From: a virus
Lineage: Duplodnaviria; Caudoviricetes
Strand: one strand, 5' to 3'
IMG/VR virus record: IMGVR_UViG_3300031420_000495
Coordinates: 160,001 to 224,000 of that record
Length of the DNA: 64,000 bases
Shown: positions 29,764-58,710 of the stretch, one piece after another
Position numbering within the stretch: the stretch's first letter is position 1
How the letters are laid out: each line of letters opens with the position of its first letter
Position numbers and translations under genes: made by a program
Notes under the pieces: model-generated
Seen by the model: only the letters and a program-made list of their open reading frames with translations
Told to the model about the DNA's origin: nothing
The model's database searches: none

Positions 29764-30317
29764 GTAAAAGTTCTCTTCAAAGTTAAAAAGGTGTAGGAAA
29801 TTCCAGAGTCCGTTTGCGGAGCACTGATGTATTCAAGACTCCATTCTATCCCTATTTTCAACTGATTTAGAACAAATATTTTCCAGTTGACGAGGTCGTG
29901 CTGTAGAGTAACATCTGCGCCCGAGTTCGTATCGACAAGTGTCAAGTAGATACGATCGACAAGTTGCAGGTCAATTGCTTGATCGTAAATGCTTGCACCG
30001 CCGATGATCCAGAGTTCGCCGTCGCAACTGTCCATGAAACTGAGAACCATGTTCTCGAAGTTGTTCACTGGGCAGATGTCTTCGTGATAACCGTTCAGAT
30101 CGCTGGTCACAACGATATTGAAACGATTGGGTAAGCCTTGTGGACGTTTGAACGATTCAAACGTTTTGCGGCCCATGATGACGTCGTGTCCGGTCGTCAA
30201 CTCTTTGAACCGCTGCATGTCGCCGGGTAATTTCCACGGCAGACGTCCATCCGACCAGCCGATCGCGTTCCCACGATCGACGGCCAGAATCATATTGACT
30301 GTATTCTTTGCGCTCAT
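29760..30317 (-). CDS. folA: dihydrofolate reductase
   Basis: NAIG..GRLPWKLPGDMQRFKELT..IMGRKTFES..WIIGGASIY. Confidence 0.95.
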   Translation of the reverse strand: MSAKNTVNMILAVDRGNAIGWSDGRLPWKLPGDMQRFKELTTGHDVIMGRKTFESFKRPQGLPNRFNIVVTSDLNGYHEDICPVNNFENMVLSFMDSCDGELWIIGGASIYDQAIDLQLVDRIYLTLVDTNSGADVTLQHDLVNWKIFVLNQLKIGIEWSLEYISAPQTDSGISYTFLTLKRTFT

Positions 30318-31213: not shown

Positions 31214-32215
31214 TCACGTGATGATGAAGTCGTCGATGATAACGTCGAGATAATCTCGCGCTGCTTGCCTTGCGTCTTCACGAGTCCGCCACGAAGTCGG
31301 ATCGAGTTTGGCCAGCGACGGAATGGCATACTCGAACGGCGCTTCGGAATCCGGGTTGTGATGGATTTCCACTTCGTACCCGCGGTACGAGAAGGTTCGT
31401 ACACCATCAAACTTCTGGTTATACTTCTTCTCCTTGAAGAGGAAACTTACCGGGTCCTTCAGTGTCGCGAGGTTGATGTCGTGCGACACGATTTCCGAAC
31501 GTTGCACCGGACCTTTCGGACGATGCTTCTCGGGAATCTTCGCCAACTCAGCTTCGGACAGCTCACGGTCGACCAGCAGACGACGTGCAAACGTTCCGCG
31601 CTTGAAGAAGTACGGGTACGCCTCGAAGTTGACGCCTTTGTCCAGCATCATTTGACGAAGCTGCAGACCGTTCTTTCCGTTCAGCTGCTTCTGCGAATAC
31701 AGAGCTTGCGCGCCCATCGACACCGCGTTCTTCGTCGCGTCTTGTTGACGCCACAACAGAACGTGATATGCTTCTTGCAAGTTCGGCACGACGTATGCAC
31801 GTGCATCGAAGCACGGCAACAGATGAGCCTTCTGTGGCAGGTAGCCGGCGAGGTTCTTGTTGAACACGGCCGTGGCATACGATGCCGTCAGCGTCTCGAT
31901 CTTCTGGAAGCGGCCGTCGAAAACGAGTTCCGACTTGCTGTCTGGTTCGCTGGTGAAGATCAGCGTGATTTCGTCCGACTGCGTGTAGCCGATGTCGCAA
32001 TGGAAACGCTCGACCAACGCCGACATCGTAAGGATCATCAGCTCCGACAGGTCCACGTCGTATGGGCGTTTCAGACCTTTCGTGAACGTGTGGAAGTTAT
32101 TGCCATCCAAACGCACGATGAGAGGTTGGCCTTTGAAAGCCCTGCGTGAAGTTGAAGGCGCTTCGTACGCCTTCATGCGATCGCCGATTTGTGTCTTGTC
32201 AGTGCGGTCCGTCAT
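31214..32215 (-). CDS. thg1: tRNA(His) guanylyltransferase Thg1-like protein
   Basis: RMKAYE, VRLDGNNFHTFT, YTQSDEITL, CFDAR, WRQQDATKN. Confidence 0.92.
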   Translation of the reverse strand: MTDRTDKTQIGDRMKAYEAPSTSRRAFKGQPLIVRLDGNNFHTFTKGLKRPYDVDLSELMILTMSALVERFHCDIGYTQSDEITLIFTSEPDSKSELVFDGRFQKIETLTASYATAVFNKNLAGYLPQKAHLLPCFDARAYVVPNLQEAYHVLLWRQQDATKNAVSMGAQALYSQKQLNGKNGLQLRQMMLDKGVNFEAYPYFFKRGTFARRLLVDRELSEAELAKIPEKHRPKGPVQRSEIVSHDINLATLKDPVSFLFKEKKYNQKFDGVRTFSYRGYEVEIHHNPDSEAPFEYAIPSLAKLDPTSWRTREDARQAARDYLDVIIDDFIIT

Positions 32216-32477
32216 AGTCAGTTTCCGTTGGTGGGTTGCGACGCTCGCTGTTGCGAGCGTCGTTACAGTCGCTGATGTATTGCTCCAGCGTAGTGATGCG
32301 CAGAATGAATGCGGCAATCACGAATTCGGTGAGGGCAGTATGCCATTGACGATTCAGCAAGGCCATGACCATGTTGAAAAGCGTCATACCCATGATGATC
32401 CTCCAAATCCAAAGCATTGTTTGGTCTTGGTGATATGTGCTCAGATAACGGTTGAGCGACCTGCGCACTTTTGTCAT
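32199..32477 (-). CDS. membrane hypothetical protein
   Basis: Two hydrophobic segments. Confidence 0.55.
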   Translation of the reverse strand: MTKVRRSLNRYLSTYHQDQTMLWIWRIIMGMTLFNMVMALLNRQWHTALTEFVIAAFILRITTLEQYISDCNDARNSERRNPPTETDYDGPH

Positions 32478-33435: not shown

Positions 33436-35058
33436 TTAGAAGTTCGCGATGATCTGCGGTGCGGCCGAGTCGAAACCGGCGATGTCCAGCATACCGCCGT
33501 CTTTCGGATCAGCGATCGTGAACTGCGTGACCGACGTACCGATCACAACCGACTTCGCATTCTTGTTCACGTTCGCGCGGTACTTTGCGAGAGCCTGAAC
33601 AGGCGACTGACGACCCGAGTTGGTTTCGTTGTCGGTGATGATGACGAACTTGTCGACTTTGTACTTGTGCGCCGCAGCGTACTCGTAGGTCTTCGCGCAG
33701 TCGGTGCTGCCGCCGTTCCAGTTCGCTTTTTCCATCACGTTCAGCACTGCGTCGAGACGCATGCTTGGCGAGATTTTCAGTTCCACGAGGTCTTGCTTGA
33801 AACCAACCACGTGGCTGTTCGGCTGATTGCGAATCACGCCCATTGCCATACATGCCGCAACTTCCGCTGCGTTCAGGTTTGGCGAGCCGTTCACGTTCGA
33901 ACCCCACATCGAGCCGGAGATGTCGACACCTACGAGGTAGTTGTCGTCAGTCTTTTCGGCTGCGGCGAATGCAGCGTAGAACGCGTCATCCAGTGCGGTA
34001 ATGATGCGCTGATCCGGAGTCCAGACCAACGAACCACGCTCACCATGGCCGGCCTTGTACTGCTTCATTGCCTGCAGGATCGTGATTGGGTGCACGCGAC
34101 CACGACGAATTGCTTCGACGTCGGTCAGCTTTGCGACAGCCAGCTTCGAGCCTTCGGACAGCGGGCCGAATACACCGTGTGCGGACAGCGAACCCAGTTT
34201 ACGGATCAGGGCTGTCATACCCATGTTGCGGACCAGAGCCAGCAACACGTCTTTGTCTTTCAGGAACTGGGTCGGCACCATTTCCCAGGTCAGCAGGTCG
34301 GAACCTTCGATCAGACGCAGAACGTCTTTCTTGTCGGTTGCGCGCTTCAGGTACTCGAAGTCAACGAGGACTTGCGGTACTTCTGCGCCTTCTGGCAGCT
34401 CACCTTTTACGGAGTAGCGGAACAGGTTGGACTGCTGGTCGGACGATGGCTTCACGTGCGCGAGACGCAGAACGTCGCGGTGTGCCCAGCCGTTACGCTG
34501 TTGGTACTTCAGCATCTGCACTGCCAGCTTGTCGATCGTCTTGCCGGTGTACCATGCGGCAACACCACGCTTTGCTGCAGCGTTCCACTTGCCCAGCGCG
34601 TCCAACATCGACACGAACAGGAACAGGTGGGTACCGGTACGGCAGACCTTTGGCAGGGCTTCGTACGCAGCAGCGACGGTTTCGGCATTGCCGAAGACAG
34701 CAGCCAGCGCGAGCGCCACGACTGCTGGATCGTTCTTCGGAGCGCGGCCGGCGAGCGAGTATTCGACGATGCGGTTGACCACGCGCAGACCGTCTTCTTT
34801 GATGCAACGCTTGATCACATCGAAGGACATCTTCGTGGTTTCTTTCGCGCCGACGTAGTAGCCAGCGGATTCCGAACCGATCATGAGGAATCGGTCAAAC
34901 ACGCCGAAATGATCGAGCGTGAACGTGAAGGCACCGCTGTTGTTCCGCTTCATCTCTGCTTCACGGCCTGGGACCGGAGCTTGCAGTGGTGGAGTGGAAG
35001 TCTTCGCCATGTTGGTCGAAGATGCGTTTGCGAGGTCGGTGTAGATGGATGACGACAT
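33436..35058 (-). CDS. rsr: Ro60/Rsr TROVE-domain RNA-binding protein
   Basis: NNSGAFTF, RFLMIGSE.GYYV, KYQQRNGWAHRDVLRLAH, vWA DISGSM, GGSTDC, ITDNET. Confidence 0.93.
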   Translation of the reverse strand: MSSSIYTDLANASSTNMAKTSTPPLQAPVPGREAEMKRNNSGAFTFTLDHFGVFDRFLMIGSESAGYYVGAKETTKMSFDVIKRCIKEDGLRVVNRIVEYSLAGRAPKNDPAVVALALAAVFGNAETVAAAYEALPKVCRTGTHLFLFVSMLDALGKWNAAAKRGVAAWYTGKTIDKLAVQMLKYQQRNGWAHRDVLRLAHVKPSSDQQSNLFRYSVKGELPEGAEVPQVLVDFEYLKRATDKKDVLRLIEGSDLLTWEMVPTQFLKDKDVLLALVRNMGMTALIRKLGSLSAHGVFGPLSEGSKLAVAKLTDVEAIRRGRVHPITILQAMKQYKAGHGERGSLVWTPDQRIITALDDAFYAAFAAAEKTDDNYLVGVDISGSMWGSNVNGSPNLNAAEVAACMAMGVIRNQPNSHVVGFKQDLVELKISPSMRLDAVLNVMEKANWNGGSTDCAKTYEYAAAHKYKVDKFVIITDNETNSGRQSPVQALAKYRANVNKNAKSVVIGTSVTQFTIADPKDGGMLDIAGFDSAAPQIIANF

Positions 35059-35115
35059 GTGTATTTCCTTCACGATAATTTATACGGCTGCACGCGCAGC
35101 AAAGAGCAACAACTC

Positions 35116-35401
35116 ACTGAGAAACAAAATTGCAATCGAGAATTTCAGCGTGTCAAAGTTTGATCTGCCTCCAATTACGGTCAGCAGCAGTGAACGCCTA
35201 CTCCGCATGAATAGCATGCAGTAACTATCAGAGTTTCTATCTCTGCAATATCAAGTTTCAGGCACTTGCAAATTGCCGTATACCGCATACGGCGACGTCT
35301 GTTACTTCTGGCTTGTCTTTCTAACTCGCGTTAAAAGAACAGAGAGCTTTTAGTTTTCAGTTTACGATTAAAGGATAATCGATACGCGGCGGTTTCTCAG
35401 T
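35116..35401 (-). ncRNA. long (286 nt) Y-RNA-like RNA candidate
   Basis: Ends pair (ACUGAGAAAC/GUUUCUCAGU), bulged C, upper stem AUCGA/UCGAU followed by UUAUCC; next to rsr. Confidence 0.55.
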
Positions 35402-35423: not shown

Positions 35424-35508
35424 AAAAGAGCGACAAAGATACAGGAACGGATTTCAATTGGGCGTCCGAAGACAATAATGGAGATAACCGTAAACCTTTC
35501 GGTCGCTT
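35424..35508 (-). ncRNA. Y RNA candidate
   Basis: AGCGAC-C-GAAAGGUUUACGG-UUAUCUC...CCGU...CUUUGUCGCU-CUUUU; next to rsr. Confidence 0.75.
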
Positions 35509-35772
35509 AGTTCATTGTGGGCTTTATGATATTGCCCACTCGATTCGCTACAGTTTCTGCTGCAGCATCAATCTATATATGCATTATACAACGTGTTTTT
35601 GAACTTTTGGAACTTTATTTTTGTTCAACCGGTTTGACTGGTTCGAACAGATGGCCATCGCCATCAGGTGCAGAACATGGACCGGTGCGCGAGACACTAT
35701 CACACCAAATACATTTCCACACCAGCTTTGCGCGTTCGTCATCAGTCAGTGCAGACATTCAACGACGATCGC

Positions 35773-49157: not shown

Positions 49158-50639
49158 TTAGTTGGCGTAGTTATCCACGACTTCTTTCAGGTTGTGGTGA
49201 AGGATATATGATCCGGATTTTTCACCGGCCCAGAAGCACTTGTCTCCGACGGTGATGTGCTGAACCATGATGTCGCCCATGCCGTGAACCAGCGTAATGC
49301 GTTCCCACCCAATCGTGTGCGTTCCGTCTTCTGCATCATGACGAACTGGAACTTCCATGCCGAGCAATTCGCGCGGGTTCACGTAACCATATCGTGTTGG
49401 AATCGGTGCAGTTTCCGAACAGACCAGTGAAGCACCTGATTCAGTTACGAGACGGAAACCAGGTTGCAGTGTTGGCTTCGACATCGTGACAACGCCTTGA
49501 TTTTCTTCAAATGTTTCTGGATCAGCAAGCATCATGCTATTACCAACTTCAATTTGACCTGCCAACATTCCATCTGGCAGAATAGCATTCACGGATACGC
49601 AACCACCACCTCCACCTCCGCCTCCACCGCCAGCAGATGGCGCAACGTATTTCGCACCGGTAGTTAACGCATGTTGTTGAACTGTCGATGGATTTGGGTA
49701 ATCTCGCAGAAGCGTAAACTCGACTCGACCTTTTGCACCATTGCCACCAGTGAGACCACTGATTCGAGCTCTGTTATCTGCGTTGAACATGTTCGACGAA
49801 TCATTTGGCTTTGGTTGATAGCTTGTGTCACCAGTCAGTGTTCGTGTTCCCCAGTATCCGCCCGCTCCACCAGTACCTGTGCCTTGACGATACGTCGGTG
49901 AAGTCAAAAGAACAGCTGCTGTACTTGGGCCTGCAACAACGCCAGAGTTTGATGATCCAGCGTAACCGCCTGGCCAACCGTCTGCACCGTCACCGCCGCG
50001 AGTTACGGAATACTGGTTGTCGTTGATACCACCTGCACCTCCGCCTCCGCCACCACCTCCACCAGCGCCGACGAGCGTAGACGGAATACCGCCACGTGTC
50101 ACGCTGATTGAAGATACTTGACCAGCACTTCCTGAAGCGCCGGCATCACCCATGAAATAACCACCACTCGTGCCAAGTCCGGTCCAGTGCCCGAACCCGC
50201 CAACGCCACCATATCCGCCATCGCCAACAACAATTGTGAGAACTTCACCCGGTGAAATTGCAGCTGAGAACCAAACTTCTTCGCCCATACCCGCAGAGCC
50301 ACCACTGCCACCCGCAGCCGATGCGTTCCAGTTGTATTCACCAGCACCACCGCCTCCTCCGCCACCACCTTCACCGCCGATGACTGTTCCGGAAAATCCG
50401 CGTGGTCCATTAGGCACCGTGAAGTAATACGTTCCAGGTGAAGAGTAGAGATAGTATGTCTGCGCTGGCATGTTAGCTTTGCCACGCAAGAAGTCCATCG
50501 AGATAGTTGTTTGATCGCCAGTGACGCCAGCCAAGATGCGAACGTTTGGATCATTCAAGTTGAGGCCTGCTACGCTAACGCCAAGCTCGGCAGCAACTTG
50601 ATCCATGCCAATTGAATTTGGACTAACTGGTAATGTCAT
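49158..50639 (-). CDS. Gly-rich adhesin-like protein with C-terminal Hint domain
   Basis: Adhesin N-module, poly-Gly motifs, G9-C...HHN (49191-49601). Confidence 0.75.
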   Translation of the reverse strand: MTLPVSPNSIGMDQVAAELGVSVAGLNLNDPNVRILAGVTGDQTTISMDFLRGKANMPAQTYYLYSSPGTYYFTVPNGPRGFSGTVIGGEGGGGGGGGAGEYNWNASAAGGSGGSAGMGEEVWFSAAISPGEVLTIVVGDGGYGGVGGFGHWTGLGTSGGYFMGDAGASGSAGQVSSISVTRGGIPSTLVGAGGGGGGGGGAGGINDNQYSVTRGGDGADGWPGGYAGSSNSGVVAGPSTAAVLLTSPTYRQGTGTGGAGGYWGTRTLTGDTSYQPKPNDSSNMFNADNRARISGLTGGNGAKGRVEFTLLRDYPNPSTVQQHALTTGAKYVAPSAGGGGGGGGGGCVSVNAILPDGMLAGQIEVGNSMMLADPETFEENQGVVTMSKPTLQPGFRLVTESGASLVCSETAPIPTRYGYVNPRELLGMEVPVRHDAEDGTHTIGWERITLVHGMGDIMVQHITVGDKCFWAGEKSGSYILHHNLKEVVDNYAN

Positions 50640-57767: not shown

Positions 57768-57895
57768 TGGTGCCGACGGCTGGATTCGAACCAAGCCCTA
57801 GTCTTTTCGTAGAAGATAACCGTTCACTGACGGTCACATTGCTGCGACAAAACTTGTAAACGACGTTTCTGTGCTGTCCACTACACTACGTCGGC
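57768..57895 (-). ncRNA. 128-nt tRNA-like RNA with large insertion in the anticodon arm
   Basis: GCCGACG/CGUCGGC acceptor, D-arm, UUCGAAU, CCA; ~55 extra nt. Confidence 0.7.
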
Positions 57896-58705: not shown

Positions 58706-58710
58706 ATCGG

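Follow-up and report, generated by a model that had tools for sequence, protein, structure and literature searches.

The role of the tRNA-like domain of bacterial Y RNAs and the origin of YrlA from tRNA are open questions in the literature (PMC4201824; 10.1101/312249). In YrlA, a YUAY motif marks the joint between the Ro stem and the tRNA-like part (PMC4201824). The Ro60 site of vertebrate Y RNAs is a bulged C in the lower stem, and these RNAs share a conserved UUAUC with stem-bulge RNAs (sbRNAs) (PMC4726728). Among phages, an RNA-repair role has been described for TROVE proteins (PMC7824862), and the Ro60 of Thermus phage phiLo, which occurs with Yrl1 and Yrl2, has been shown to bind host PNPase (PMC12135203). 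Here we describe a 128-nt minus-strand gene in a 64,000-nt stretch of phage DNA (positions 160,001 to 224,000 of the IMG/VR record IMGVR_UViG_3300031420_000495; hereafter, the window), in which a complete tRNA-Arg(ACG) body is interrupted by a 52-nt arm resembling the Ro60-binding stem of Y RNAs. The source record spans 257 kb and is only ~71% complete, which identifies the source as a jumbo phage.

ARAGORN called 28 tRNAs in the window, every one on the minus strand. The 128-nt gene was not among them; it occupies a tRNA-sized slot of this array, between tRNA-Met (57902) and tRNA-Thr (57761), and the Rfam tRNA model matched it with 31.9 bits (E = 6e-4). A preliminary description had proposed a 128-nt CCA-ended tRNA body with intact acceptor, D, and T arms. 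This anatomy was confirmed on the minus strand, from 57895 to 57768. The acceptor stem has 7 bp and is followed by the discriminator A73 (57771) and an encoded CCA (57770-57768), the D stem has 4 bp, and the T arm has a UUCGAAU loop and a stem with one bulged U. The D loop carries G18, G19, and A20, the last of which is an identity element for arginyl-tRNA synthetase (ArgRS). The anticodon arm, described earlier as replaced, is only interrupted: downstream of the extra domain lies a full Arg anticodon hairpin of 4 bp with the loop CU-ACG-AA, and G27 is able to pair with C43. When the downstream segment was shuffled 2000 times, an equally good anticodon arm appeared only 4 times, and excision of the 52 nt (57868-57817) gave a 76-nt gene that ARAGORN called tRNA-Arg(acg). 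The helices proposed earlier are folds of this one sequence, and the closing helix GUC.UUU/AAA.GAC was mistaken: AAAGAC forms the 3′ side of the Arg anticodon stem. The minus strand folded better than its shuffles (z = -2.5); a plus-strand element was rejected, since its fold was not significant (z = -1.0) and the gene is on the minus strand. Elsewhere in the window, at ~58709-58784 on the minus strand, lies a tRNA-like gene overlooked by both ARAGORN and Rfam, with a 6-bp anticodon stem, an 8-nt loop, and an atypical T loop, and without CCA.

Three full-length homologues were found motif-free, through the loci of a neighbouring protein (nhmmer, E = 8e-11 to 1e-6). The set was extended by pattern scans and a covariance model; more than 40 distinct copies were found in other viral and metagenome contigs, with up to four per genome, and 31 copies were aligned and analysed. 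This conservation far exceeds chance and rules out the unconserved, decayed insertion that had been considered at the outset. The arms of the 31 homologues are 50–57 nt long. They are carried by Arg, Lys, Asn, Asp, Tyr, Met, Ser, Val, Pro, and other bodies and are inserted at positions 27/28, 28/29, or 29/30 or in the loop, from 32/33 to 33/34. CCA is retained in 28 of 32 arm-bearing copies; in some homologues it is missing or the loops are degenerate. A blastn search against cultured phages gave no full-length homologue, and among the matches listed from a pattern scan of prokaryote genomes (at least 120), model R1 recognised no tRNA-embedded arm. An 18-nt exact pattern gave two matches in viral contigs, both chance matches in coding DNA. 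In five loop-inserted copies (L263, L275, L400:8640, and L407:1591 and 1824), an extra GAAA-type hairpin precedes the arm and almost no anticodon loop is left. A second set of CCA-ended tRNA-shaped RNAs of 116–130 nt (L006:44-159, L015:1230-1350, and L004:3014-3143) carries a different insert, GAUCCUG..AGGAU..CAGCA; the L004 insert contains GGCCGAAG, a strict YrlA-type motif.

The arm forms two conserved helices. Over the 31 sequences, both helices together were 94.6% paired with 64 compensatory cells, and none of 500 shuffles was as good. Sliding the two-helix arm as a control lowered pairing to 19–52%, and RNAalifold recovered 14 of the same 15 pairs unprompted. The lower helix (6 bp) was 94% paired, with compensatory changes in three of its six pairs, and its bulged C was invariant (31/31). 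UUAUC was likewise present in 31/31; it was partly the search pattern, and it was also present in the three homologues obtained without the pattern. The invariant bulged C and UUAUC match the described Ro60 site and Y RNA motifs and are hallmarks of Y RNAs. Model R1, which was built including this sequence, scored 55.5 bits on the arm (E = 7e-12); its matches at 30086 and 21482 of the window are chance matches in coding DNA. The preliminary description had read a hairpin from ACCGU-CAGUGA-ACGG-UUAUC. These letters are present, but the ACCGU/ACGGU hairpin was rejected as the conserved fold, as it consists of invariant letters only and its covariation over the 31 homologues was 0.087, against 0.101 for shuffled alignments.

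Free RNAs containing the two strands of the arm, with the ends opened, were also found; they start with RACCG...YGGUUAUC and finish with YCG...UUUGUY. The 5′ strand served as the search pattern and the 3′ strand was independent of it, and in 21 of 28 free RNAs the 3′ strand paired in both helices beyond shuffles. Many of the free RNAs are in the YrlA order, with a T arm, a closed acceptor, and a D arm. In this phage, such RNAs lie upstream of the Ro60/Rsr gene (rsr) and in the tRNA array (Table 1); ACCGAAAG occurs in the free RNA at 35504, and CGAA occurs in some relatives. The TROVE protein itself was encoded by 6/6 arm carriers that were at least 90% complete and by 2/6 equally complete non-carriers. 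These results, namely the covariation, the strands common with free Y-like RNAs, and the co-occurrence with Ro60, support the earlier lead toward Y RNAs and Rsr, and they also support the suggested tRNA-mimic scaffold that could be aminoacylated. The 128-nt element is real, conserved, and structured, and it is probably a variant of the Ro60/Y RNA system.

The references for YrlA were Rfam RF02553 (gathering threshold, 69 bits), Chen et al. 2014 (PMC4201824), and Wang et al. 2018 (10.1101/312249; PDB 6CU1). The RNA at L028:3274-3407 is an exact permuted twin of the 128-nt RNA; its anticodon stem, which is Ser(GCU)-like, is split, and it has a CGAA motif. It scored weakly on RF02553 (34.9 bits), and a TROVE open reading frame lies ~130 nt downstream. 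An unannotated permuted tRNA-like RNA was also noted in the cultured Ralstonia phage RsoM2USA (MG752970.1, ~49850-49990, minus strand; L409:2417-2560). It has an anticodon hairpin with GUG, a T arm, a closed acceptor, and a D arm nearly identical to that of the RNA in the window, lies ~5 kb from a TROVE gene, and is a possible laboratory model for the permuted form. As an arm homologue this match was rejected, being a divergent permuted RNA with no score against model R1. A pairwise alignment of the permuted RNA with L028 (57.5 versus a shuffle maximum of 53) used an off-register slice, was uninformative, and was not used.

Table 1. Positions in the window of the 128-nt gene, its parts, and the related genes.
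Feature	Positions	Strand	Remarks
Whole gene: tRNA-Arg(ACG) body with Y-RNA-like arm (52 nt) after G27	57768-57895	-	128 nt
5′ tRNA part: acceptor 5′ strand (57895-57889), U8 A9, D arm (57886-57871), A26, G27	57869-57895	-	
Inserted arm: AAAC linker, upper helix, pyrimidine-rich internal loop, lower helix with GCAA tetraloop	57817-57868	-	52 nt
Upper helix, 9 bp (57864-57856 with 57827-57819)	57819-57864	-	95% of cells paired; 5/9 pairs compensatory
Lower helix; bulged C (57832) between C-G and G-U pairs; putative Ro60/Rsr docking site	57831-57849	-	
UUAUC motif, overlapping tRNA U28 C29	57815-57819	-	YUAY of YrlA; UUAUC of vertebrate Y RNA and sbRNA
Retained anticodon hairpin, positions 28–43 (anticodon ACG, 57810-57808)	57801-57816	-	
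Variable loop, T arm (57796-57779), acceptor 3′ strand (57778-57772)	57772-57800	-	
Ro60/Rsr gene, 545 aa, TROVE + vWA_Ro60; probable protein partner	33436-35073	-	~22.7 kb from the 128-nt RNA
Free Y-like RNA upstream of rsr; end strands GACCGAAAG...GGUUAUC and UUUGUCGC	35427-35510	-	Alone not significant versus shuffles (162/500)
Second free Y-like RNA, ~285 nt, directly upstream of rsr; same terminal stem	35118-35400	-	Shuffles, 40/500
Third free Y-like RNA, in a slot of the same tRNA array; same terminal stem	60494-60575	-	

The second free RNA is unusually long, with a multi-hairpin interior, and its 3′ end lies ~45 nt ahead of the rsr start. A gene for Thg1 (tRNA-His guanylyltransferase) lies near rsr (31214-32317, minus strand), and the array contains two tRNA-His genes. 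The phage also encodes a T4 Rnl1-type RNA ligase outside the window (G000:C1:128285-128887, minus strand).

From the sequence, we put the probability that the gene product is an unspliced Rsr-binding RNA at about 0.65. The RNA would probably be cut from a polycistronic tRNA transcript like its neighbours, because it has a tRNA slot, a 7-bp acceptor, and an encoded CCA. It would keep the complete tRNA-Arg body, and the side arm, set in the 5′ half of the anticodon stem, would provide the two-helix bulged-C stem that is the Ro60 dock of Y RNAs. This topology would be that of YrlA restored to tRNA order, with a hairpin loop connecting the 5′ and 3′ ends of the Y RNA and with an open acceptor. The phage Rsr is predicted to bind the bulged-C arm, and the tRNA body would then tether Rsr to the tRNA-handling machinery. 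We favour a role in RNA surveillance or repair during infection because of Rnl1, Thg1, and the repair role described for phage TROVE proteins; the anticodon hairpin, conserved in shape, might act alongside the phage Rnl1 as bait for host anticodon nucleases or as their substrate. This bait or repair role is proposed tentatively. Alternatively, the RNA could recruit host PNPase, as in other Ro60–Y ribonucleoproteins.

The 128-nt RNA may be arginylated, given A20, ACG, and CCA, and it is probably not a routine decoder. The anticodons of the arm-bearing genes drift relative to the body: the nearest neighbour by tRNA body had the same anticodon for 8 of 26 arm-bearing tRNAs versus 217 of 310 ordinary tRNAs (75–95% identity), in a comparison whose pairs are not independent and whose pool sizes differ. 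L274, a close relative of the arm, has AUG instead of ACG, and odd A34 anticodons occur among the copies (AUG, AUU, ACU, and AUC). A loop that keeps its shape while its identity drifts is more readily explained by a structural or bait role than by decoding.

Several observations weigh against the unspliced Rsr-binding RNA. The minimum free energy structure given by ViennaRNA for this copy contains the ACCGU/ACGGU hairpin (-42.3 versus -30.5 kcal/mol for the conserved fold), and the program favoured the upper helix in only 6 of the 31 homologues. Because ViennaRNA disfavours the conserved fold, protein or tertiary contacts must be assumed, and the fold may need such support; the preference is weak evidence, since the same program misfolds the spliced tRNA too. 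The 128-nt RNA reads ACCGUC and does not contain the strict YrlA motif GNCGAAN0-1G, the YrlA Rfam model gave no match on 57768-57895 at E up to 10, and the gene is outside 4 kb of rsr. The co-occurrence with Ro60 is based on few, related phages. U33 and R37 are both present in 27 of 32 hidden loops versus 374 of 411 ordinary tRNAs (91%), which splicing predicts likewise.

Splicing is the basis of a rival account, in which the arm represents a new class of intron. A nuclease, possibly assisted by Rsr, would excise it and Rnl1 would join the halves to give tRNA-Arg(ACG) and release a mini Y RNA. A shared route would also mature the permuted forms, much as red algae and archaea handle both intron-bearing and permuted tRNA genes by one route. 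The intron-containing tRNA of the preliminary description is formally possible, since the gene conceals an entire tRNA-Arg; we favour it less and consider a new intron unlikely. It would explain the perfect 76-nt tRNA left on excision, the 27 of 31 homologues that ARAGORN calls as tRNAs after removal of the arm, the mostly canonical hidden loops, the Rnl1 ligase in 5/5 carriers tested, and the split anticodon stems kept in the permuted twins; processing of YrlA to tRNA has been raised as a possibility (10.1101/312249), and tRNAs of Lak phages have unexplained introns (10.1101/356790). However, no EndA-type endonuclease (PF01974) was found in five carriers, four of them near-complete, and no RtcB in six, and inspection of the junctions by eye revealed no bulge-helix-bulge (BHB). 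A group I intron needs a catalytic core of ~200 nt or more, a U at the 5′ splice site, and a terminal G; the 52-nt arm is far too short, ends in A, and has no Rfam intron match. The insertion site ranges from 27/28 to ~33/34 and the best 3′ junction moves by -1 to +1 or more relative to the motif, so that a cut fixed relative to the motif would give single stem mismatches in some copies, which would be tolerable. The drifting anticodons also argue against an intron, as do the two further Arg(ACG) genes that the phage already has and the result of an exact pattern search of viral contigs, which found no arm-less copy of the anticodon arm. A bolder form of this proposal, in which the Y-like arm is a splice signal and jumbo phages have a third tRNA-splicing pathway that is neither BHB/EndA nor group I/II, appears improbable. 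If it were true, Ro60 or a partner would mark the arm, a nuclease would remove it, and Rnl1 would join the halves; the mini Y RNA would be freed, the tRNA switched on, and permuted YrlA-like genes would be converted into tRNAs too.

The arm could also be a conserved docking site for a protein other than Ro60, with Y-like letters that are convergent or were inherited without binding. The absence of the strict GNCGAANG motif, the distance of the gene from rsr, and the two near-complete Ro60 phages without the arm are in line with this explanation, which we judge very improbable in the face of Ro60 in all six near-complete carriers and of RNAs with the same stem directly upstream of rsr in both this phage and L028. 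Finally, a neutral, decaying recombinant of two genes of the array, one for a tRNA and one for a Y RNA, would account for the missing CCA or degenerate loops of some homologues and for the bulge in the T stem of the 128-nt gene; it is hard to reconcile with the strong compensatory change inside the embedded arm, the CCA in most copies, and its recurrence across many tRNA bodies and genomes, and we regard it as extremely unlikely.

One phage group has three wirings of a single Ro-type stem: within a complete CCA-ended tRNA, in the permuted order of YrlA where the anticodon stem is split, and as a simple stem RNA. These look like a living series from tRNA to YrlA, in which the Ro-type stem was first inserted into the anticodon stem and the order then permuted, which is an alternative to the dimeric-tRNA model for YrlA. 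A natural, potentially chargeable Y RNA would allow direct tests of Ro60 binding, aminoacylation, ribosome entry, and nuclease baiting. With respect to annotation, such genes escape ARAGORN or would be mislabelled as intron-bearing tRNAs.

The literature searched, which did not cover all reviews on the subject, contained no description of the tRNA-ordered form, and a 2026 preprint on tRNA mimics covers other families. Two broad features of a Y RNA were found: Ro60/Rsr in the genome, and a stem in which an internal loop and an upper stem lie above a single bulged C. Compared with vertebrate Y RNAs and nematode sbRNAs, the arm shares the lower stem with a single bulged C, the upper stem, and the UUAUC that follows. 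The vertebrate RNAs and sbRNAs have no tRNA body, their stem is formed from the RNA's own ends, and 3 nt lie opposite the bulge, whereas the arm has a pyrimidine-rich loop of at least 6 nt there. The bulge context is GUC-C-G in vertebrate Y RNAs and sbRNAs and RAC-C-G in the arm. The phiLo system likewise combines a phage-encoded Ro60 with Y-like RNAs; these are simple-stem RNAs beside the gene, with CGAA and no tRNA body reported. Lak megaphage introns (10.1101/356790), which were compared by description only, and the BHB and permuted tRNA genes of archaea and red algae also carry extra anticodon-arm sequence whose removal restores a tRNA, and interrupted and permuted gene forms both exist here as among the archaeal and red-algal genes. 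The arm differs from these introns in having no BHB, no EndA, a variable junction, and a conserved Y-like structure. A two-piece Ro60-bound tRNA-like RNA made by processing has a similarly open acceptor stem and CCA, whereas the 128-nt RNA is encoded by one continuous gene with an anticodon hairpin.

In regards to YrlA, both RNAs place a Ro60-type stem at the anticodon-stem position of a tRNA-like fold with D and T arms and have YUAY at the joint, and both occur with Ro60 in the same genome and Y-like companions beside rsr. YrlA is permuted, with the T arm ahead of the D arm, and has a loop-closed acceptor, no free CCA, and no anticodon loop; in contrast, the 128-nt RNA has the normal tRNA order and an open 7-bp acceptor with an encoded CCA, keeps its anticodon loop, and closes the Y stem with a hairpin. 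Where YrlA has GNCGAANG, the arm family has ACCGYY, and YrlA genes lie within ~4 kb of the Ro60 gene on the same strand, whereas the 128-nt gene is on the same strand at the distance given in Table 1. By these comparisons, the 128-nt RNA would work like a YrlA-type Y RNA but is not a member of RF02553, from which it departs in order, CCA, anticodon loop, motif, distance, and score.
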